The notes under the pieces were generated by a model that was given only the letters and a program-made list of their open reading frames with translations, ran no database searches and had not been told where the DNA came from. This document shows positions 3,490-44,459 of a stretch of 64,000 nt of DNA, in pieces. A program made the position numbers and the translations under genes. This DNA is from an uncultured Clostridia bacterium (GTDB lineage Bacteria; Bacillota; Clostridia; Christensenellales; UBA3700). The stretch's first letter is position 1. The number at the start of each line of letters is the position of its first letter. Where the stretch lies: NCBI GenBank assembly GCA_945872615.1, contig CAMBZZ010000001.1, forward strand, positions 90,701-154,700. Reading direction: 5' to 3'.

Positions 3490-3907
3490 CGTTTACCACC
3501 TCATCTTTCTTCACGATTTTGCACTTAACCGGCAACTTGTGAGAAGCAAGTCTCAAAGCTTCTCTTGCTACTTCTTCGCTCACGCCTGCCATCTCGAACA
3601 TAACTCTACCCGGTTTTACGACTGCAACCCAGTATTCTACGCTACCTTTACCGCTACCCATTCTGGTTTCTGCAGGCTTTTTGGTTACAGGCTTGTGTGG
3701 GAAGATATTTATCCATACTTGTCCGCCACGCTTGATATATCTGGTCATTGCGATACGGGCAGCCTCGATTTGGTTAGAAGTAACCCAACTTGGCTCCAAA
3801 GCAACGAGACCATATTCGCCGTAAGCGATGACGTTACCTTTGTTTGCGTTTCCTTTGAGTCTGCCGCGATGAACACGACGTCTCTTTACTCTCTTAGGCA
3901 TCAACAT
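3476..3907 (-). CDS. rplP: 50S ribosomal protein L16
   Basis: 143 aa starting [16 protein letters not shown], a typical L16 N-terminus. Confidence 0.95.
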
Positions 3908-4590
3908 TACGCGTTACCTCCTTCCTTAGCATCGACAACGGTCTTACCTCCGAGAACTTCTCCCTTGTAGACCCATACCTTTACGCCGATAGCACCGTAA
4001 GTAGTTCTTGCGGTAGCTACACCGTATTCAATATCGGCTCTGATGGTTTGAAGTGGGATAGAACCTTCGTGATAATTTTCGCTTCTTGCGATTTCCGCTC
4101 CGTCAAGACGACCCGATACCATAGTTTTGATACCCTTAACGCCGCCCTTCATAGCGCGAGAAATAACTTGCTTCATTGCTCTTCTAAAAGCTACACGCTT
4201 TTCGAGTTGCTCTGCAATGTTCTCTGCGATAAGTTGAGCGTCGGTATCTGGTCTCTTCACTTCCATGATGTTGATAACCACGCTCTTCTTAGGAGCAATT
4301 TTCATAACTTCTTTCTTAATCTCTTCTACGTTTGCGCCGGCTTTACCGATCAAGGTAGCGGGTTTGGACGTGTAGATGTTTACCGTAACGATGTCGTTGG
4401 CAGAAGAAAGAACTCTGTTGATAGTAATTTTGGAGATACCGTTTTGATAGTATTTATTCTTCAAAAACTCTCTGATTTTGTGGTCTTCTACAAGATTGGC
4501 AGAAAAATTCTTCTTGTCGGCAAACCATTGAGCATTCCAATCTTTAATTACGCCTACTCTCAATCCGTGTGGACTAACTTTTTGACCCAT
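3907..4590 (-). CDS. rpsC: 30S ribosomal protein S3
   Basis: 227 aa starting [18 protein letters not shown], the canonical S3 N-terminus. Confidence 0.95.
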
Positions 4591-4604
4591 CTTAAACCTC
4601 CTCC

Positions 4605-4994
4605 TTACTCAGCCACAGCATCAAGAATAATCGTGATGTGGCTTGTTCTTTTGTTTATTCTGCCCGCGCTTCCCTTAGCCTTTGGAGTAATTCTCTTAAG
4701 GATAGGACCCGCATTGGCATAACATTCTGCTACGTACAACTCGCTCTTGTTCATGTTGAGATTGTTTTCCGCATTAGCGGCAGCCGAATTCAACACTTTG
4801 AGGAGAGGTTCGCTTGCAGCTTTTCTCAAAGTCTTGAGAATTGCAACCGCGTCCGTATATTTCTGACCTCTGATAACGTCAAGCACTACACGCACTTTGT
4901 CAGGAGATATTCTGATATATTTTGCAACCGCTCTCGGACGCTTGTCTGCGTTCTCTTGACGAGCAATAGCTTTTTCTCTAATTCTAGTAGCCAT
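4605..4994 (-). CDS. rplV: 50S ribosomal protein L22
   Basis: 129 aa, L22-like ([20 protein letters not shown]). Cluster order supports the call. Confidence 0.95.
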
Positions 4995-5006
4995 ATTATC
5001 CTCCTA

Positions 5007-5285
5007 TTATTTCTTGCCTGTTGTCTTTTCGCCGGCATGGCCTTTGAAGGTTCTGGTCGGAGCGAACTCGCCGAGCTTGCAGCCTACCATATCTTCGGTG
5101 ATATATACAGGAACGTGTTTTCTTCCGTCATGAACTGCGATGGTATGTCCTACCATGTCAGGAAAAATTGTCGAAGATCTGGACCAGGTCTTTACCAACT
5201 TTTTCTCGTTTGCTTGGTTCATGGCAATGATTCTTTTAATCAATCTTTCTTCTACGAAAGGTCCTTTTTTAACTGATCTGCTCAT
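5007..5285 (-). CDS. rpsS: 30S ribosomal protein S19
   Basis: 92 aa starting [11 protein letters not shown], with the [17 protein letters not shown] motif. Confidence 0.95.
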
Positions 5286-7745: not shown

Positions 7746-8054
7746 TTAAAATTTAATGTTAATATCTACGCCTGCTGGCAAATCCAACTTCATCAATGCT
7801 TCCACAGACTTAGGGGTTGGATTGTAAATATCGATAATTCTCTTGTGCGTTCTAAGTTCGAACTGCTCTCTGCTGTCCTTGTCCTTGTGCACTGCTCTGA
7901 TAATAGTGATAACTTCTTTATCAGTTGGGAGTGGGATAGGTCCGGCGACCTTAACACCGCTTCTCTTTGCCGTCTCAACGATTTTGTCTGACGCAACGTC
8001 GATGAGGTTGTGATCGTAAGCTCTAAGTCTTATTCTGATTTTTTGTCCTGCCAT
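7746..8054 (-). CDS. rpsJ: 30S ribosomal protein S10
   Basis: 102 aa starting [15 protein letters not shown], the canonical S10 N-terminus. First gene of the cluster. Confidence 0.95.
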
Positions 8055-8225
8055 TTTTGTTTCTCCTTTCCTAACTTGTATTCACGCATCCGTGTGTTTC
8101 GCATTGCCCCTAATAAAAAGGACCAGCAGTAGTCCCTCGTTAGTCGCCCGATTGTCGGACTCTTGTCGGCGAAAGTTCTCTGCCAAGGCAGTAACCTCCC
8201 GCGTCATTCCTCACAATGCTCGTTT

Positions 8226-8254
8226 ATCTTATATTAAATTGAAAAACCTGTCAA
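8226..8254 (-). promoter_or_regulatory. Candidate sigma-70-type promoter of the S10 operon
   Basis: Minus strand reads TTGACA (8254-8249), a 17-nt spacer, then TAAGAT (8231-8226). An A/T-rich tract lies upstream. It sits about 170 nt upstream of the rpsJ ATG. Confidence 0.5.
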
Positions 8255-8462
8255 ACGTTTGAAAATAATTTTATAAAAAAGTTTTGTAAAATTTATGTAA
8301 AATTTACTTTTTTTGGTAATTTTTCCAATATCTTGTGTTGTTTGACCGTTATAGATACAATTTTTTATTGCCAATATTTTATTATGAAAGACTTTATTGT
8401 GTAAAGTTTGAATTTTAGACTATTCAATTTGTAAGCTAGTTATTATTATCTAAAATTTCATA

Positions 8463-8491
8463 TTGACTTCTTATTTAAAACCATTTATAAT
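8463..8491 (+). promoter_or_regulatory. Candidate sigma-70-type promoter for the peptidase gene
   Basis: TTGACT (8463-8468), a 17-nt spacer, then TATAAT (8486-8491). AGGTGA RBS at 8501-8506 precedes the ATG at 8510. Confidence 0.6.
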
Positions 8492-8509
8492 AAAATAAAA
8501 AGGTGATTT

Positions 8510-9583
8510 ATGAAAAATAAAGTTATCTCGAGCATTATTTTACTTTTAATTTGTTTGTCAATTATTTTTTTTAATTGTCAGATAATCGCCGAAGAAAATC
8601 CACAATCCTATATTTTAGAATATGCCGAAGAGTTTGTGAAAGGTTATGATTTAGAAGTTGCTGCCATAATACCTATTTACGATTTATATAATAATATTAT
8701 ACGGTATTGCGTTACATACAATAAAGATTCAAAAGAATTTGGTTATATTATTTTAGATAGTATTATCTCAAAAGGAAAAGCCCAACTAATAGAGTTTGCT
8801 TTTAATTGCAATAGTATAATTAAACCTAATAGAAAAAATGTATTAATTAACATAATGGAATATGGACAACAACGAGGTGAATTTATCGAAGTGGGTAATA
8901 GAGCGTTTTATTTATCTATGCTAAAAAAATATTTAGCAAACGATTCTGCGAATAGTATTTATGATGGCTACTTGGATATTGACATTAATTTAAATGATAT
9001 TTTAAATGGGCAATTGCAATTAGTTCCATATGCATTTACATTTAGACCATTTATTCAGGAGGACTTAGCCACAACATCACAAATAGATGATGGAATTTGC
9101 GGAGCAACTACCGCTATGAATGTATTGAAATATTATTATGATTCAGGTGAGGAGAAATATGACGACCTTTTCTATCAAAATGCTGACTATTCAATAAATG
9201 TAAATCAAACATATAATATTTTGAGATCATATCAATCTTCTTCTAATCCTTATAATATAGAAGATCAAGATAAAAGAAAAACTGCACTCAATAATTATAT
9301 TAAGAATAAAACCACTCTTAATGTTACAATAGTTAAATATTTATTTACAACTTGGACGTTTTTTTACAATGACATAAAAAATGGAAAATTAGTTGATGTT
9401 AGATATTCATATATGGATGCAGGACATGCAGTGTTAGCAATCGGTGCAGCAGTAGTCAAACCCGATATTTATCCTTTTGGCACAAAATTTTTATGTGTTG
9501 CAGATACTTGGAATTATAATGTTAGATGGTTGAATTATGATTATCACGATAATGTTAAAGGAATGAGTATTAATGTCTATTAA
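8510..9583 (+). CDS. Secreted papain-fold cysteine peptidase, C39-like (Peptidase_C39_2-like)
   Basis: 357 aa with an N-terminal signal/TM segment (KVISSIILLLICLSIIFF). Candidate catalytic Cys in DDGICGATTAMNVLKYYY, His in DAGHAVLAIGAAVV, and Asp/Asn in VADTWN. The gene is strongly AT-rich compared with its neighbours. Confidence 0.55.
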   Translation: MKNKVISSIILLLICLSIIFFNCQIIAEENPQSYILEYAEEFVKGYDLEVAAIIPIYDLYNNIIRYCVTYNKDSKEFGYIILDSIISKGKAQLIEFAFNCNSIIKPNRKNVLINIMEYGQQRGEFIEVGNRAFYLSMLKKYLANDSANSIYDGYLDIDINLNDILNGQLQLVPYAFTFRPFIQEDLATTSQIDDGICGATTAMNVLKYYYDSGEEKYDDLFYQNADYSINVNQTYNILRSYQSSSNPYNIEDQDKRKTALNNYIKNKTTLNVTIVKYLFTTWTFFYNDIKNGKLVDVRYSYMDAGHAVLAIGAAVVKPDIYPFGTKFLCVADTWNYNVRWLNYDYHDNVKGMSINVY

Positions 9584-9615
9584 ATTAGTATAAAAAATAT
9601 AGAGGTATATTTATT

Positions 9616-10032
9616 ATGAGAAAGGAAATGATAATTATTTGTATTCTATTTATAATATTAATAGTATTGGCGAGCATATTAATTTACAATGTAGCAACCC
9701 ACCCCCCAATCGACAAAATAGTAGAGTTGGACGGCATAGAAAAAGTGCAAGTCACCATTTCTTCTTGTTCCCCCAACGATAATATCCAATTCCAACTTTC
9801 TTCTAACGACGTCCAACTATTCGTTGCAATATTGCAATCTAGCCAAGTCAAAGCGTGTGGCAATCCTCACCTTGACGGTGGTGTCTACCGTATCAACCTC
9901 ATAGGCGCGCAAAAGGAACAATCCATCTCCATTTTAGGTCAATATATGATACTCGGCGGCAAATACTACCGCATCGGGGACGCTGCCCACACGTTGCTCA
10001 GTTCTTGCCTACAAGACATGCTTGCGCAATAA
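9616..10032 (+). CDS. Hypothetical membrane-anchored protein, paralog 1
   Basis: 138 aa with an AGAGG RBS and one N-terminal TM helix. The C-terminal two-thirds are identical to the ORF at 10605-11021. Confidence 0.7.
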   Translation: MRKEMIIICILFIILIVLASILIYNVATHPPIDKIVELDGIEKVQVTISSCSPNDNIQFQLSSNDVQLFVAILQSSQVKACGNPHLDGGVYRINLIGAQKEQSISILGQYMILGGKYYRIGDAAHTLLSSCLQDMLAQ

Positions 10033-10094
10033 TCGCACAAATCCAACGTCATTACTTTTACGTCATGCGGTGTATCGTAGACAATAGTTGTGGC

Positions 10095-10432
10095 GTCATT
10101 GTGCTGTGTACGTTTAGCATTAGCAAAGATATTACTTGCAATACTGTGGCAATCTCGTGTATCTTGTCATTCCGAGGACATTTATGTCCGTGGGAATCTC
10201 ATCCCTAGGGGATTATTCCAATCTCTCCTCCTTCTACTCGCACCTTTGCCGTCAAAAGGTTGTATGTCATTCCGCTGTGTACGTTTTGCATTAGCAAAGG
10301 CTATAAATAGCCACGGCAATCTCAATCCTATTAAATTCCTCCTTCGTGCAAATTAAGGTGGCGTGGCTATGCCGAGACGGAGAGATTGCTTATGTCATTG
10401 TGAGCGAGCAAGGCAAGTTTGGCTCTCTCAAC
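10095..10432 (+). repeat. Hairpin-repeat array A (5 units of the GTCATT...AATCTC family and associated modules)
   Basis: Units at 10095-10156, 10166-10201, 10266-10324, 10338-10389 and 10394-10432. Inner palindromes are GGACATttATGTCC (10176-10189) and GGCTATaaATAGCC (10299-10312). Confidence 0.85.
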
Positions 10433-10604
10433 ACCCCCTCCCCAAAGCAGTAGAATATGATACGATAAATCAAAAAAATAAAAAATAATATTGCTGTAAC
10501 AAAATGACGATTTTTTGTACCTTTATAGTAGAAAGAGTAATAATCAAAACGAATAATCAAAGTAATATGAAAACGAAATAATACAATTCGCGAGGTATCT
10601 TATT

Positions 10605-11021
10605 ATGAAAAAATCAACCGTTATCGTTAGTCTTTTGGCAATAGTTACGATAGTTTTGGCAAGTATATTGCTATACGGCGTCGCAACCCACCCCCCAATC
10701 GACAAACTAGTAGAGTTGGACGGCATAGAAAAAGTGCAAGTCACCCTTTTTTCTTGTTCCCCCGACGATAATATCCAATTCCAACTTTCTTCTACCGACG
10801 TCCAACTATTCGTTGCAATATTGCAATCTAGCCAAGTCAAAGCGTGTGGCAATCCTCACCTTGACGGTGGTGTCTACCGTATCAACCTCATAGGCGCGCA
10901 AAAGGAACAATCCATCTCCATTTTAGGTCAATATATGATACTCGGCGGCAAATACTACCGCATCGGGGACGCTGCCCACACGTTGCTCAGTTCTTGCCTA
11001 CAAGACATGCTTGCGCAATAA
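10605..11021 (+). CDS. Hypothetical membrane-anchored protein, paralog 2
   Basis: 138 aa with a GAGGT RBS and an N-terminal TM helix. Paralog of the ORF at 9616-10032. Confidence 0.7.
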   Translation: MKKSTVIVSLLAIVTIVLASILLYGVATHPPIDKLVELDGIEKVQVTLFSCSPDDNIQFQLSSTDVQLFVAILQSSQVKACGNPHLDGGVYRINLIGAQKEQSISILGQYMILGGKYYRIGDAAHTLLSSCLQDMLAQ

Positions 11022-11083
11022 TCGCACAAATCCAACGTCATTACTTTTACGTCATGCGGTGTATCGTAGACAATAGTTGTGGC

Positions 11084-11552
11084 GTCATTGTGCTGTGTAC
11101 GTTTAGCATTAGCAAAGATATTACTTGCAATACTGTGGCAATCTCGTGTATCTTGTCATTCCGAGGACATTTATGTCCGTGGGAATCTCATCCCTAGGGG
11201 ATTATTCCAATCTCTCCTCCTTCTACTCGCACCTTTGCCGTCAAAAGGTTGTATGTCATTCCGCTGTGTATGTTTTGCATTAGCAAAGGCTATAAATAGC
11301 CGCGGCAATCTCAATCCATATAAAAAGCCGTCCCTGTGCAAGGGAAGGGGGACCACCGTAGGTGGTGGAAGGGTTGTCTTACTCGTACCTATGCCGTCAA
11401 AAAGAATTATGTCATTCCGAGCCTTACTCGTAAGGCGTGGGAATCTCAACCTTATAAAAAGCCTCCTTTGTGTAAAGGGAGGCGTCAACGCAGTTGATGG
11501 AGGGATTGCTTGTGTCATTGCGGTGGAGCGAAGCGGAACCCCACAATCTCAC
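11084..11552 (+). repeat. Hairpin-repeat array B (7 units; the first three duplicate array A)
   Basis: Units at 11084-11145, 11155-11190, 11255-11313, 11328-11377, 11410-11449, 11461-11510 and 11514-11552. Same terminal motifs as array A. Confidence 0.85.
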
Positions 11553-11554
11553 TC

Positions 11555-11590
11555 AAAAAAAATACCCATTCCAACAAGAATGGGCTTTTT
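11555..11590. terminator. Bidirectional intrinsic terminator
   Basis: Stem CCCATTC/GAATGGG with a 6-nt loop, flanked by an A-run (11555-11562) and a T-run (11586-11590). On the minus strand it lies directly downstream of the DUF1858-like gene. Confidence 0.7.
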
Positions 11591-13424: not shown

Positions 13425-14548
13425 TACAGTTTTTCACCACATTCAGGGCAGAACTTTGCTCCCGCTTTGACGTCGGCGCCGCACTTAGGGCATTTTACGC
13501 TACCGAGGCTCGCGCCGCACTCAGGGCAAAACTTGGCACCCTTTTTGACTGCCGTTCCGCACTTAGGGCATTTTTGAGTGCTTTCCATACTCTTGCCGCA
13601 CTCAGGGCAGAACTTAGAGCCCTTTTTGACCTTAGCGCCGCAGTTAGGACAAGTATCCTTAGCTTCCACGTCGGCGGTGCCGTTTGCGATACTGCTCATA
13701 CCGTCGGCAAAAACCTTGCCCACGCCGAGACCCGCGCCGAGACCGATACCAGCGCCTGCCAATCCTCCAGGATTTTTTGCGGCGGATTTCATTGCCTCGA
13801 TACTCTCCATCTGAGCGTATCCTTGCATAGCTCCGTTCATCACGCCCACGGAGGTACGCTTATCCATCATCTTCTCCACTTCTTCAGGCAAGGAGAGATT
13901 TTCGATAAAGAGAGCCTTGATTTCTATACCGATTTTGTCAAACTCTTCTTGCAGTTTGACCTTAGCCATATCGGTGATTTCGTCGTAATGCATAGCAAGG
14001 TCGAGCGCAGCCACTTTAGACTCCGCGATGACGTTGCTAAGAGTAGACGTGATAATCTTTTTGAAGTATTCGTCAACGTTTTTGACGGTGAGCTCGCCCA
14101 TCGAGCCAAAGAGTTCGTTCATAGCTTGAGTAGGCGTACCCACGGCAAAAGAATAGGTACCGAAGCCTCTCACTCTAATCATTCCGAAATCGTTGTCTCT
14201 CATCATCACGGGGTTAGATGTGCCCCACTTGTTGTTGATAAACTGCTTGGTGGAGATAAAGTACACGTCACCCGTGTATGGGCTTTCCCAAGCATACTTC
14301 CAACTATTGAGCGAAGTAAGGATTGGGATATTGCGCACGTCGCTTAGTTCGTATGTACCGGGACCGAATACGTCGGCAAGTTTACCCTCTTGGATAAATA
14401 GAGCCTTTTGTCCCTCTCTCACCACAAGTTGAGATTTTTTCATAATCTCTTCTTTTCTCTCAAGCGGATACTTCCACACGATAGTATTAGGATTATCGTT
14501 TTCCCATTGTATTACTTTTCTAAATTGTCTTTTTAGCCATCCAGCCAT
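13424..14548 (-). CDS. SPFH/band-7 domain protein with three C-terminal zinc ribbons (YdjI / COG4260-like)
   Basis: 374 aa with an SPFH-like core and a Gly-rich linker. The C-terminus carries three copies of CP(N/K)CG-x10-CPECG. Confidence 0.7.
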   Translation of the reverse strand: MAGWLKRQFRKVIQWENDNPNTIVWKYPLERKEEIMKKSQLVVREGQKALFIQEGKLADVFGPGTYELSDVRNIPILTSLNSWKYAWESPYTGDVYFISTKQFINNKWGTSNPVMMRDNDFGMIRVRGFGTYSFAVGTPTQAMNELFGSMGELTVKNVDEYFKKIITSTLSNVIAESKVAALDLAMHYDEITDMAKVKLQEEFDKIGIEIKALFIENLSLPEEVEKMMDKRTSVGVMNGAMQGYAQMESIEAMKSAAKNPGGLAGAGIGLGAGLGVGKVFADGMSSIANGTADVEAKDTCPNCGAKVKKGSKFCPECGKSMESTQKCPKCGTAVKKGAKFCPECGASLGSVKCPKCGADVKAGAKFCPECGEKL

Positions 14549-14797: not shown

Positions 14798-14825
14798 TTG
14801 TCACCGCGCATTTCGCGGATATATT
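14798..14825 (+). promoter_or_regulatory. Candidate promoter with an inverted repeat in the spacer
   Basis: TTGTCA (14798-14803), a 16-nt spacer containing CCGCGcatttCGCGG (14804-14818), then TATATT (14820-14825). Confidence 0.4.
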
Positions 14826-14873: not shown

Positions 14874-14972
14874 ATGACTAAGAACAAGATGCAAAACAAG
14901 GCTACCAAAGGCTGCAAATGCAAAGCCGAAAGTACCGAAAAGAATTGCAAATGCACCAAAAGCAACGACTAA
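14874..14972 (+). CDS. Small Cys/Lys-rich peptide (32 aa), not in the ORF track
   Basis: AGGAGG at 14861-14866 lies 7 nt before the ATG. The product is MTKNKMQNKATKGCKCKAESTEKNCKCTKSND. A hairpin terminator follows at 15023-15060. Confidence 0.55.
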   Translation: MTKNKMQNKATKGCKCKAESTEKNCKCTKSND

Positions 14973-15022
14973 TGACGTTGCCTATATCGTCTAAATGACG
15001 ACTGACCACCTGATAAGTGGTA

Positions 15023-15060
15023 ATGAGGAGAGAAGACGACTTTTCTCCTCATTTTTATTT
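15023..15060 (+). terminator. Intrinsic terminator
   Basis: Stem ATGAGGAGAGAA/TTTTCTCCTCAT with a 6-nt loop, followed by TTTTATTT. Confidence 0.7.
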
Positions 15061-15075
15061 ATCTCGAAATATCAA

Positions 15076-15636
15076 CGCCCCACCTCGCACCTATTCCGTG
15101 AGAGTAACACAATATGTCGTAAGCAAAATAGGTGGCAAGACGGAGGGATAGTCCTATTACGTCATTGCGGTGGAGCGTAGCGTAACTTGGCAATCTCGTC
15201 ATCTTGTCATTCCGCTGTGTACATTTTGCGACAGCAAAGGACATTTATGTCCGTGGGAATCTCATCCCCCTTTGCAGCCTCCTTTGTGCAAAGGGAGGTG
15301 TCCGACGAAAGTCGGACGGAGGGATTGTTTTTTCATTGCGTTGCGTACGTTTTACATTTGCAAAGTGAGTAAAGCGACTGTGGCAATCTCAAGTAGTAAT
15401 GTCATTGCGAAGCCGTTAGGCTGTGGCAATCTCAATCAACAATATCATTGCCCCCAGTGCATTTTGCGTTAGCAAAGTAAGCAAAGCGAACGCGGCAATC
15501 TCAACCGCTTAAAAGCCGCCCCTGTGCAAGGGGAGGGGGACCACTGTAGGCGGTGGAAGGGTTGTCCACTTTTGTCATTACGGTGGAGCGTAACATTGTT
15601 ATGTCATTCCGTTGTGTACATTGGGAATCTCTATCC
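15076..15636 (+). repeat. Hairpin-repeat array C (about 10 units, the largest array)
   Basis: Class-1 units at 15161-15197, 15207-15264, 15333-15391, 15400-15434, 15444-15504, 15574-15593 (truncated) and 15603-15632. Class-2 units at 15277-15327 and 15515-15565. Confidence 0.85.
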
Positions 15637-15875
15637 TATTAAAAAGCCCCCTCTCACCATATCCAATTACGACAATTTCCCTTATACTCTAAGTTTTATC
15701 GCCAAAAATCAACAAAAAAGATTAAAAAAGACCTAGTTACCAAAAATAATATAACCAACGAGAAAGCAAAATAGTAAAAGAAGAGCGCAACCTTTTGGAT
15801 TGCGCAGTTCTTTATATAAGGGGGAAAATTATGAGTGATTTTGTCGGATAGGTTTCTTTTCCTATCGTCAAGGAC

Positions 15876-15904
15876 AGTATACCACTCATATTTTCCATAG
15901 TCAA
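15876..15904 (-). promoter_or_regulatory. Orphan strong promoter-like element
   Basis: Minus strand reads TTGACT (15904-15899), a 17-nt spacer, then TATACT (15881-15876). No credible CDS follows. Two hairpins and a T-run lie downstream (see findings). Confidence 0.4.
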
Positions 15905-44165: not shown

Positions 44166-44267
44166 AACCTCTCCATTGATAAATAAATTATAGCACAAGT
44201 ATTGATATGGTGTAAAGAGGTAATTGTTGACAGATTTAGTCGTACTCTCATGGATAGAATAAAACAC

Positions 44268-44432
44268 AATCCCCCACCCGACAAAGTCGGGAGCCCCCTT
44301 TGCACAAAGGGGCCTTTTTATAATGATGAGATTCCCACGCTCGCTTTGCTCGCTCTGAATGACAAACTTCTTGGTTGTCACTCCACGGCAATGACATACA
44401 ACCCTTTGACGGCAGAGATGCGAGCAAGACTA
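44268..44432 (-). repeat. Hairpin-repeat array D (same family, inverted orientation)
   Basis: Reverse complements of class-2 (44268-44314), class-1 (44328-44363), truncated class-1 (44376-44395) and the CTCGCA...GCCGTCAAAGGGTTGTAT module (44393-44432). Confidence 0.8.
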
Positions 44433-44433
44433 G

Positions 44434-44459
44434 GAAAAAGGCAACTTTATCAGTTGCCT
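44434..44459 (-). terminator. Intrinsic terminator downstream of cysK
   Basis: Minus strand reads AGGCAACTgataaAGTTGCCT followed by TTTTT. It lies about 190 nt after the cysK stop. Confidence 0.6.

Follow-up and report, generated by a model that had tools for sequence, protein, structure and literature searches.

The segment at 15076-15636 of the window (the 64-kb stretch of DNA analyzed here) is probably best explained overall as a non-coding hairpin mosaic of the SRM/NTS type in a gut Christensenellales, which in the inferred part of this explanation would be a target of an Ssn-type nuclease. The array is a local version of a repeat type that was described recently, and not a new system, since strains gain and lose units and nothing is encoded. 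By profile, the units show a family resemblance to hairpins that are associated with ssn-type genes in other genomes. At the strain level, we observed gain and loss of units, nested indels at fixed points, and replacement of the whole array.

The first description of the Ssn-SRM system dates from as late as 2025. SRMs flank ssn genes, the NTS reads CGTCATTCCCGCGMAVGCGGGAATCYRG, and SsnA, a GIY-YIG protein of the cd10448 type, is a site-specific ssDNA nuclease (Chenal et al., Nat Commun 2025, PMC11893778). The Neisseria and Wolbachia Ssn enzymes bind the hairpins as ssDNA and nick upstream of them, at a distance of a few nucleotides. Binding depends critically on the C that follows the palindrome, and cutting on the three bases that precede it (PMC11893778). 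Ssn activity has been demonstrated for proteobacterial enzymes only (PMC11893778).

The array consists of seven class-1 units (one truncated), two class-2 modules, and one class-3-like module, all in the same orientation (+ strand) and situated between two convergent terminators (Table 1). The frame of a class-1 unit is GTCATTSCG...GGSAATCTC, in which the arms, ATTGC/GCAAT or ATTCC/GGAAT, are preceded by a conserved (T)GTC and directly followed by a C. The pattern GTC-ATTSC...GSAAT-C is found in U1, U2, U4, and U7, while U6 has the 5' half only, and the first G of GTC is replaced by T or A in U3 and U5. Every complete class-1 unit of the array keeps the 3' C. Head-to-tail units are separated by linkers of 8-11 nt, with identical junctions of ~30 nt between units (GGCAATCTC-linker-GTCATTGCGA). 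Tandem Repeats Finder found no tandem repeat at the array locus, so we describe a mosaic cluster rather than a regular array. The unit inventory of the first-pass annotation agrees with ours, with its listed units found in the sequence to within 1-2 bases, and the chimera it had proposed is exact: U2 is a 10166-type unit (GTCATTCCG-AGGACATTTATGTCC-GTGGGAATCTC) plus a 23-nt insert of the 10266-type kind. The array's type of class-3-like module and a unit identical to U7 are also present in the sister species L067.

Table 1. Features of the array, its flanks, and the sister clusters (window coordinates; R1, covariance model described in the text)
Feature	Position	Strand	Description
Intrinsic terminator of 32-aa peptide gene	15022..15053	+	14-pair stem and T-run; left edge of variable segment
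Strain-variable segment	15057..15741		Holds whole array; homology with L001 stops at 15056
Class-3-like module	~15076-15115	+	Core CTCGCACCTATTCCGT at 15084-15099; within part 15076..15160
Class-2-tail-like piece	15139-15149	+	GACGGAGGGAT; after class-3-like module
U1, class 1	15161..15197	+	GTCATTGCG...GGCAATCTC, SRM-type hairpin; R1 match 15158-15201, E 7.8e-5
U2, class 1, long form	15206..15263	+	10166-type hairpin with 23-nt insert; R1 E 0.026
U2 insert	15215-15237		23 nt, immediately 3' of 5' box; CTGTGTACATTTTGCGACAGCAA
Class-2 module 1	15264..15327	+	Two hairpins, then GGAGGGATTG; based on alignment of 7 copies
U3, class 1, long form	15332..15390	+	5' box TTCATTGCG, first base mutated; R1 E 0.63
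U4, class 1, short	15401..15433	+	Canonical hairpin; R1 E 3.1e-5
U5, class 1, long form	15444..15502	+	Degenerate 5' box ATCATTGCC; R1 E 6.9
Class-2 module 2	15503..15564	+	
U6, class 1, truncated	15574..15602	+	Left half of U1-type unit (family D6)
U7, class 1, short	15603..15631	+	GTCATTCCG-TTGTGTACATT-GGGAATCTC; R1 E 0.0024
Class-2 module head, truncated	15632..15660	+	CTATTAAAAAGCCCC...; by-eye comparison with class-2 heads
Intrinsic terminator	15785..15805	-	Of aminotransferase operon or candidate small RNA; near right edge of variable segment
Promoter-like site	15904-15876	-	With terminator 15805-15785, bounds ~95-nt candidate small RNA
Sister cluster A	10048..10440	+	Same module classes as array
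Sister cluster B	11037..11560	+	Duplicate of A plus extra units; best R1 match 11408-11451, E 6e-6
Sister cluster D	44258..44440	-	Modules in the order class 3, two class-1 units, class 2

The window holds 13 distinct boxed units (both boxes, at most 1 mismatch) against 0.29 in 100 dinucleotide shuffles, a ~45x excess. For GGCAATCTC at up to 1 mismatch, the count is 47, where 11.9 would be expected. The class-2 and class-3 cores are likewise enriched. All boxed units are intergenic and confined to four clusters (10.05-10.44, 11.04-11.56, and 15.08-15.64 kb, and 44.26-44.44 kb on the minus strand), and within each of the four all modules share one orientation. The first-pass annotation had allowed for the units being absent from the rest of the genome; we found them at these other loci and in the sister species, where the ortholog of cluster D has two additional class-1 units. 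Clusters A and B start right after stop codons, and a transcript would contain them in its 3' UTR. In clusters A-C, the hairpin sense lies on the C-rich strand, to which we attach no meaning.

Membership in a wider family is indicated by a covariance model, R1, that was built solely from 50 gene-flanking hairpins of unrelated contigs. Against the window, R1 matched eight units at E 6e-6 to 0.026, all oriented as in the array and all in clusters, including four in the 15-kb array; nothing else in the 64 kb fell below E 0.05. The class-1 unit is also not lineage-specific, as the same boxes are found in MAGs of many phyla: at least 120 MAG stretches match GTCATTSCG-N8-38-GGSAATCTC, with the consensus GTCATTGCGAG-(variable GC hairpin)-CGYGGCAATCTC. 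Unbiased clustering of neighboring ORFs at 120 diverse loci gave a sole recurrent partner, a GIY-YIG protein of ~98 aa (PF01541), whose gene always lies within 70 bp of the hairpin in the clustered loci. Among 80 metagenomic loci encoding small GIY-YIG homologs, 63 have a hairpin within 250 bp. Hairpin density at these 80 loci is 3.7-4.7/kb in the 250-bp flanks versus ~0.2-0.3/kb beyond 500 bp, a 15-20x enrichment near the gene. The most frequent arrangement has a plus hairpin upstream and a minus hairpin downstream (IS-like), and several of the GIY-YIG loci bear NTS-like hairpins, TGTCATTCCCGCGAAAGCGGGAATCCAG. The units are thus not the local curiosity that the first-pass annotation took them for, as their hairpin family flanks Ssn-type GIY-YIG genes across bacterial phyla. 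The best 120 of at least 7970 GIY-YIG homologs are all of the Oscillospiraceae type. Neither the window (tblastn) nor ~60 kb of strain contigs contains an ssn/GIY-YIG gene. At 73 diverse loci, hairpin strand showed no bias with respect to GC skew or gene strand (31 vs 42, p 0.24), which leaves a replication-linked role unsupported.

A full-text search found the literal box sequences printed in no paper, and we reached the literature link via GIY-YIG. The published SRM string, HGTCWYN(0-2)YYVSBRHN(0-5)WNVSBRGN(0-2)RNCYNB, has 0 matches in the window versus 0.22 in shuffles. This same string misses 44 of the 50 ssn-type gene-flanking hairpins (26/26 of the ATTGC type and 18/24 of the ATTCC type), so we see in it a search tool of narrow reach, not a definition, and do not regard its 0 window matches as decisive. 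Because the most widespread hairpin form in MAGs, GTCATTGCGAG...GGCAATCTC, escapes the string, current censuses probably undercount the family.

How far does the likeness to SRM/NTS go? The array units, like the hairpins of the Ssn system, are oriented semi-palindromes with a 5' (C/T)GTC, arms of the form ATTCC.../...GGAAT, and a C after the 3' arm, and U2 and U7 have GTCATTCC and GGGAATC in common with the Neisseria NTS. In the window the units are many, intergenic, and clustered, as are SRM/NTS, and in metagenomes the same hairpin clan lies on both sides of small GIY-YIG genes. There are also differences. In most array units the arm is ATTGC/GCAAT and the last bases are CTC, a form that the search string omits, and a nested insert of 23-25 nt brings their loops up to 40 nt, beyond anything biochemically tested. 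Packing head to tail with such short linkers is likewise unlike SRM/NTS, and the host, in contrast to those of the characterized Ssn systems, is a Gram-positive-lineage gut anaerobe. Several observations count against the Ssn reading: the absence of an ssn gene from the window and the ~60 kb of strain contigs, the loss of the first G of GTC in U3 and U5, the weak folds, the loops lengthened by inserts, the 0 matches to the SRM string, the lack of raised divergence in the flanking genes, the lack of strand bias at the 73 loci, and the restriction of demonstrated Ssn activity to proteobacterial enzymes. When folded as ssDNA, most units are weak (z +0.7 to -2.4, with U1 at 0.1 and U4 at -2.4), and several are no better than shuffled sequence; class-2 module 1 is the sole strongly structured unit (-17.7 kcal/mol, z -4.96). 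The term "hairpin" used in the first-pass annotation is overstated for the several units that fold like shuffles.

We compared the arrays of the window and four spanning assemblies (five arrays), plus a sixth strain contig, L001, all from the same Christensenellales species. Complete assemblies of this species that cover the locus include GCA_019973095.1, GCA_019973235.1, GCA_034114385.1, and GCA_051883435.1. The five arrays are all different, with 6, 8, 8, 9, and 7 complete class-1 units and 2, 2, 3, 2, and 1 class-2 modules. In the sixth strain sequence the count of complete class-1 units is 0, since this ~99% identical contig has, exactly at the site of the array, a 1.69-kb cassette with an intact TetR-like regulator and an intact PETase-like hydrolase. 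At the U2 position, strain L134 has a short 10166-type unit without the 23-nt insert. U4 and a 10-nt linker make up a 43-bp unit of strain-variable copy number, present in several copies in L131, L132, and L133, with up to four in L133. In strain L132, the second hairpin of class-2 module 1 is replaced by a MITE-like element of ~150 nt with inverted ends CTCACGGCA...TGCCGTGAG. The first-pass annotation had proposed modular shuffling and a look at the same locus in related strains; every strain's array differs, and the differences in unit number, insert (including the insert-free U2 of L134), and nested element support such shuffling. Between strains, the array flanks have 0-3% substitutions per 250-bp bin, and a divergence gradient toward the array, which would be the signature of a recombination hot spot, is absent from the flanks in this small sample of five strains.

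This variability is reminiscent of the NIME arrays, in which dRS3 repeats (ATTCCC-N8-GGGAAT) separate other repeats and syntenic arrays vary in number and length (PMC1797815). NIME arrays were described as Neisseria-specific, and the genes next to them as diverging more than the average gene (Bentley et al. 2007, PMC1797815). As in NIMEs, inverted repeats of the ATTCC(C)...(G)GGAAT type (here the seven class-1 units) are interleaved with other short repeat families, the chromosomal position is fixed while repeat number and array length vary by strain (6, 8, 8, 9, 7, 0), and other small elements are nested inside the arrays. Unlike in NIMEs, the spacers are mostly the 8-11-nt linkers or class-2 modules of 60-65 nt, not RS families of 50-150 bp, and the genes adjoining the array show no raised divergence among the five strains, a small sample. 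There is some likeness to MITEs such as Correia elements as well, in that the element in L132 and the class-3 modules have the appearance of a MITE and its ends. The class-1 units that make up most of the array, in contrast, each consist of one hairpin of 29-62 nt and lack both separate terminal inverted repeats and recognizable target-site duplications.

In the explanation that we favor, the class-1 features are those of the hairpins that flank genes for small single-domain GIY-YIG "Ssn" nucleases across bacteria, and class-1 frames are interleaved with two lineage-specific modules. Class 2 consists of two hairpins, the first of which has a stem that reads as an opposite-strand terminator, and class 3 is similar to the terminus of a ~150-nt element whose ends are inverted. 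The outcome would be a NIME/BIME-like array parked in transcriptionally quiet space between convergent terminators. Slippage or unequal exchange at the ~30-nt junctions may lengthen and shorten it, as may gene conversion from other clusters. An Ssn-type nuclease of the host would recognize the plus-strand units in ssDNA, and the cluster would then be a set of strand-specific ssDNA cut sites in DNA uptake, repair, or replication, acting neither as an RNA nor as a protein-coding element. A bolder reading is that class-1 frames are Ssn-type docking and cutting sites in Clostridia and that the strain differences are footprints of cut-and-copy SRM mobility; we offer it tentatively and doubt that it is right. 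The footprints would be units added with their linker, a 23-nt mini-palindrome present or absent after GTCATTSCG, and the MITE-like element in a class-2 hairpin. If this mobility reading is true, evidence on the growth of NTS/NIME-type arrays would be in hand for the first time, the Ssn-SRM pair would be a mobile element outside Proteobacteria, and arrays between convergent terminators would be safe landing pads and exchange points for cassettes like the TetR and hydrolase pair.

The likeness to proteobacterial REP/BIME raises a different explanation, namely that the units are REP/REPIN-type extragenic palindromes spread in BIME-like fashion via a RAYT or an IS200/IS605-type HUH (Y1) transposase, with a coincidental or secondary resemblance to Ssn sites. 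The units are indeed imperfect palindromes, short and extragenic, that have a conserved, oriented 5' flank and sit in mosaic clusters with accessory motifs; as with REPs, they often lie at gene 3' ends or between convergent genes, and the cognate enzyme gene is flanked by repeats. The Ssn paper itself draws the REP/RAYT/BIME parallel (PMC11893778), and nested insertions at fixed positions are easier to picture as the work of a transposase than of a hydrolytic nuclease. We nonetheless consider this explanation unlikely. The boxes fit the profile of GIY-YIG-flanking hairpins and not any described REP, and they are common to many phyla rather than species-specific. The partner enzyme family that emerged here is GIY-YIG, not HUH; no Y1 transposase family recurs as a neighbor at the 120 diverse loci, and a Pfam scan of 19 window ORFs gave no Y1 transposase. 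Within each cluster, moreover, units are direct, without alternation or the inverted doublets typical of REPINs.

Could the array instead function as RNA? The first-pass annotation had called the ~900-bp gap gene-free and non-coding. We found no convincing ORF in it, which bears out the non-coding claim, and the block is made of the three module classes. The gap is not featureless, since it holds two facing terminators and a promoter-like site. The latter had been called an orphan promoter; it is followed by a structured stretch of ~95 nt and a terminator. This arrangement suggests that the minus-strand site may drive a candidate small RNA of ~95 nt, predicted to run from about 15868 to 15776. 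An RNA or protein product of the array itself is made less likely by its position between the facing terminators, by the lack of a relevant Rfam family at gathering and permissive thresholds, and by the lack of a credible ORF.

A functional RNA element, be it a terminator, an attenuator, mRNA-stabilizing hairpins, or a structured non-coding RNA for the flanking convergent genes, would be in keeping with the class-2 modules. Their first hairpin plus an A-run reads as an intrinsic terminator of the opposite strand in other clusters (11345-11331 minus; 44295-44312 plus), module 1 is strongly structured, and in a direct reading of the 7-copy alignment the second hairpin keeps its pairing with different sequences among copies. 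The 3' UTR-like position of clusters A and B would also suit such a role. The array, however, lies outside both transcription units, beyond the plus-strand terminator on one side and the minus-strand terminator on the other, and most class-1 units are no more stable than shuffles and no Rfam family matches. Unit number and order are specific to the strain, and L001 does without the array with its flanking genes intact. We therefore think an RNA function of the array quite unlikely.

The first-pass annotation had also raised the possibility that relatives carry an intact gene of which the units are remnants. Intact genes do sit in the exact interval in L001, but blastn and tblastx between cassette and array gave chance matches alone (best E 0.4), so the array is an alternative allele and not what is left of the cassette genes. 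With the same units at other loci and in another species, descent from a TetR and hydrolase pair of this kind is highly improbable, and equally so a degenerate CRISPR-like array, which the conserved boxes with variable interiors superficially suggest as repeats and spacers but which does not fit palindromic interiors that recur at other loci, irregular unit lengths, and the lack of a periodic repeat.

An SRM/NTS-type mosaic at this locus means that in a Christensenellales lineage common in the gut the same hairpin clan builds arrays that are NIME-like and hypervariable between strains, whereas in the 2007 view such arrays were confined to Neisseria. The locus offers natural alleles, which differ in unit number, in the presence of the insert, and in array versus gene cassette, and these are suited to asking if Ssn nucleases are what turns the repeats over or if they limit recombination. 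The arrays also break short-read assemblies of the species, and most of its metagenomic contigs end within the array. Several short-read contigs break at 15494, inside U5.

The array at 15076-15636 is non-coding. The 909 bp from the terminator of the 32-aa Cys/Lys peptide gene to the stop codon of an aminotransferase gene (15963, minus strand) contain no credible ORF, and the array is placed between two facing terminators. The first-pass annotation had seen no protein-coding signal across about 900 bp and had counted seven class-1 units (one truncated), two class-2 units and a class-3-like module, all of which agrees with the sequence. Every module in the array is in plus orientation, and Tandem Repeats Finder detects no periodic repeat there. 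Class-1 units consist of GTCATTSCG, a variable interior and GGSAATCTC, and are closed by a 5-bp stem, ATTSC/GSAAT. Thirteen distinct units in the window carry the two boxes with one mismatch at most, versus 0.29 in dinucleotide shuffles. These boxed units are confined to four intergenic clusters (A, 10.05-10.44 kb; B, 11.04-11.56 kb; the array; and one at 44.26-44.44 kb on the minus strand), which also contain the class-2 and class-3 cores, oriented alike. U2 was earlier described as a chimera, and it is one: it equals the 10166-type unit of cluster A exactly, plus a 23-nt insert (CTGTGTACATTTTGCGACAGCAA) directly 3' of the 5' box, and the 10266-type unit of the same cluster carries an insert of this kind.

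Modules of the array and the adjoining terminator
Feature	Position	Strand
Terminator stem of 32-aa Cys/Lys peptide gene	15022-15053	plus
Class-3-like module (start of array)	core 15084-15099	plus
Class-1 U1	15161-15197	plus
Class-1 U2	15206-15263	plus
Class-2 module #1	15264-15327	plus
Class-1 U3	15332-15390	plus
Class-1 U4	15401-15433	plus
Class-1 U5	15444-15502	plus
Class-2 module #2	15503-15564	plus
Class-1 U6, truncated	15574-15602	plus
Class-1 U7	15603-15631	plus
Further class-2 module, truncated head only	after U7	plus

Folded as single-stranded DNA (ssDNA), most class-1 units are no more stable than shuffles (z +0.7 to -2.4), and several are degenerate, with weak folds and long inserts. 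Class-2 module #1 is strongly structured (z -4.96). Direct reading of the class-2 copies shows that their second hairpin keeps its pairing despite differing sequences (ACCACC/GGTGGT, TCCGAC/GTCGGA, TCAAC/GTTGA). The first hairpin and its T-run scored as terminator-like at 11345-11331 (minus) and 44295-44312 (plus), and the T-runs are weak in the array; opposite-strand termination may be an additional role of these modules.

Many metagenomic contigs and four NCBI assemblies encode the proteins on either side of the array in unchanged form. Short-read contigs stop within the array, at 15494, 15515 or 15542, and the comparison of related strains proposed in the first-pass annotation was made with the window and the four assemblies spanning the locus. 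These five sequences have five different arrays, with 6, 8, 8, 9, and 7 complete class-1 units and 2, 2, 3, 2, and 1 class-2 modules, and unit number, inserts, and nested elements all vary, which backs the earlier reading of modular shuffling. A 43-bp unit of linker plus U4 is present once in the window and several times in other strains, with up to four copies in L133. Strain L131 has an extra unit of distinct interior (GAGCCTTTGGCG) between copies of the same linker, and L134 has, at the U2 position, a 10166-type unit without the insert, identical in sequence to the 10166 unit of cluster A. In L132 (GCA_034114385.1), the second hairpin of class-2 module #1 is the nesting site of a ~150-nt element with inverted ends (CTCACGGCA...TGCCGTGAG), which takes the hairpin's place. 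This element is MITE-like and nested in the array; related copies are present in L067, a contig of a sister species ("Christensenellales bacterium LOHA21_bin.035"), and the class-3 modules look like its right end.

A sixth strain sequence, L001 (ERZ27258020 k141_418667), is ~99% identical to the window in both flanks, and in place of window positions 15057-15741 it has a 1.69-kb cassette (3545-5235) with genes for a TetR-like regulator and a PETase-like alpha/beta hydrolase. The cassette is bounded by the same two terminators as the array, so the inter-terminator gap is a swap site. If the units were the decayed remnants of a gene, an intact counterpart might be expected in related genomes; L001 does carry intact genes here, but we found no similarity between its cassette and the array. 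Between strains, substitutions in the array flanks amount to only 0-3%, and among the strains compared we saw neither a divergence gradient towards the array nor raised divergence of neighboring genes. Synteny between the L067 contig and window 41.3-45.6 kb (85-91% identity) identifies the window as DNA of a related Christensenellales species, and the L067 ortholog of the 44.26-44.44 kb cluster has two more class-1 units. Altogether, the structure of the array turns over much faster than its flanks.

To place the class-1 units more broadly, we scanned one genome per species for GTCATTSCG-N8-38-GGSAATCTC. At least 120 stretches matched, in metagenome-assembled genomes (MAGs) of Dehalococcoidia, Oscillospiraceae, Nitrospirota, Gammaproteobacteria, CPR lineages, Bacteroidota, Planctomycetota, Rickettsiales, and others, and the consensus of those listed is GTCATTGCGAG-[variable GC-rich hairpin]-CGYGGCAATCTC. 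When all ORFs within 1 kb of these stretches were clustered, the sole recurrent neighbor was a ~98-aa GIY-YIG protein (PF01541), found at three loci, in each case no more than 70 bp from the hairpin. No Y1 transposase was found among the recurrent neighbors or among 19 window ORFs scanned. In a second sample of 80 metagenomic loci encoding homologs of the GIY-YIG protein, 63 have a TCATT(GC|CC|CT)...AATC hairpin within 250 bp. The 250-bp flanks hold 3.7-4.7 hairpins per kb versus ~0.2-0.3 per kb beyond 500 bp, and the most frequent layout is a plus hairpin upstream and a minus hairpin downstream. Across diverse loci, hairpins show no strand bias relative to GC skew. A covariance model built from 50 gene-flanking hairpins only, searched against the whole window with filters off, matches eight units (E 6e-6 to 0.026), all in array orientation; those in the array are at 15398 (3e-5), 15158 (8e-5), 15600 (0.002), and 15203 (0.03). 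Nothing outside the clusters matches below E 0.05, and the lower scores of long units are due to their inserts. The GIY-YIG protein has at least 7970 homologs at E <=1e-10, and among the matches listed the best are all of Oscillospiraceae type.

A related system is known from Neisseria, where the repeat CGTCATTCCCGCGMAVGCGGGAATCYRG, termed NTS, an oriented extension of dRS3, flanks the gene for SsnA, a 94-aa single-domain GIY-YIG protein (cd10448); relatives in other phyla, the Ssn-related motifs (SRM), likewise flank an ssn gene (Chenal et al. 2025, PMC11893778). Single-stranded DNA is the only form in which SsnA binds the hairpin, and the cut falls a few nucleotides upstream; binding depends critically on the C after the palindrome and cutting on the three bases before it, and the authors described the NTS-ssnA-NTS layout as IS-like and drew a parallel with REP/RAYT/BIME (PMC11893778). 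The biochemistry of Ssn comes from proteobacterial enzymes only. In the window's units these critical positions are kept, the palindrome being preceded by GTC and followed by C, except for the 5' G lost in U3 and U5, and U2 and U7 share GTCATTCC and GGGAATC with Neisseria NTS. Several ssn-type loci in our sample bear NTS-like hairpins (TGTCATTCCCGCGAAAGCGGGAATCCAG), which ties the sampled GIY-YIG family to Ssn. The degenerate search string of PMC11893778 has no match in the window; since 44 of the 50 gene-flanking hairpins, including all ATTGC-arm forms, escape it too, we take this as a limit of the string and not as an exclusion. The closest match for the array's architecture is the neisserial intergenic mosaic elements (NIME), in which dRS3 repeats (ATTCCC-N8-GGGAAT) are interleaved with other repeat families at fixed positions; NIME arrays differ in number and length between strains and were reported in 2007 as not observed outside Neisseria (PMC1797815).

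The array combines SRM-type frames with two lineage-specific modules, and its units are a local, elaborated version of the hairpin family associated with Ssn, in a NIME-like mosaic. Turnover could proceed via slippage or unequal exchange across ~30-nt identical junctions (GGCAATCTC-AATCAACAAT-GTCATTGCGA), and conversion from other clusters may also contribute, as suggested by the cluster A sequence at the U2 position of L134. There is no ssn gene within the 64-kb window, and the plus-strand units would be recognition sites of a putative Ssn-type ssDNA nuclease whose gene would lie elsewhere in the genome. On this reading the cluster would work at the DNA level, in uptake, repair, or replication. 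This widens the 2025 Ssn/SRM finding to include gut Clostridia, the ATTGC-arm form, and an array architecture, and the array alleles offer a natural set for testing how such arrays evolve.

Other ssn-type loci show further arrangements. In a Candidatus Falkowbacteria MAG (L044, 2700-2855), a ~150-nt insert with perfect inverted ends (GAGATGGTTACAAAACTATTT...) interrupts an ssn-type GIY-YIG gene after the conserved KYN, and an SRM hairpin lies 3' of the gene. A Clostridia-like contig (L142, 829-1220) has an ssn-type gene with one hairpin per side in inverted orientation, apparently between a recF-like 3' end and a gyrB-like 5' end (flanks identified by reading the sequence only); the layout looks like insertion of a whole hairpin-gene-hairpin unit. 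Most contigs with ssn-type genes (L141-L220, proteins P0001-P0120) are shorter than 2 kb, and in the window's species contigs end inside the array. Because hairpin clusters break short-read metagenome assemblies, ssn-type genes and arrays are probably under-represented in MAGs.

Downstream of the array, on the minus strand, a promoter-like site (TTGACT-17-TATACT with TG, 15904-15876) precedes a ~95-nt stretch with a 5' hairpin, a single-stranded C-rich tract (UUUUCCCCCUU), and a terminator (15805-15785). Its RNA fold is -23.5 kcal/mol (z -5.04), it has no Rfam match (15776-15904), and conservation extends to every strain contig, the array-less one included. We consider 15776-15904 (minus) a candidate small RNA, whose C-rich tract could pair with Shine-Dalgarno sequences. 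On the other side, the 32-aa Cys/Lys-rich peptide gene (MTKNKMQNKATKGCKCKAESTEKNCKCTKSND; 14874-14972, plus) has a promoter-like site (14798-14825), a strong Shine-Dalgarno sequence, and its own terminator, whose stem shows compensatory changes in L001; the peptide matches no Pfam family. Clusters A and B lie in a tandem duplication (9616-10440 / 10605-11560), each copy comprising a 138-aa ORF with a hydrophobic N-terminus and no Pfam match plus a downstream repeat cluster, with extra units in the second; most other strain contigs have a single copy of the gene. A low-GC island at 8001-10000 (GC 0.31 versus ~0.46 elsewhere) adjoins a ribosomal-protein operon and contains a 357-aa ORF (8510-9583) without a Pfam match. 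Finally, an 81-bp tandem repeat (2.6 copies, 75% matches, 13443-13648) within a Band_7/zinc-ribbon gene corresponds to repeated C-terminal zinc-ribbon modules of the protein.
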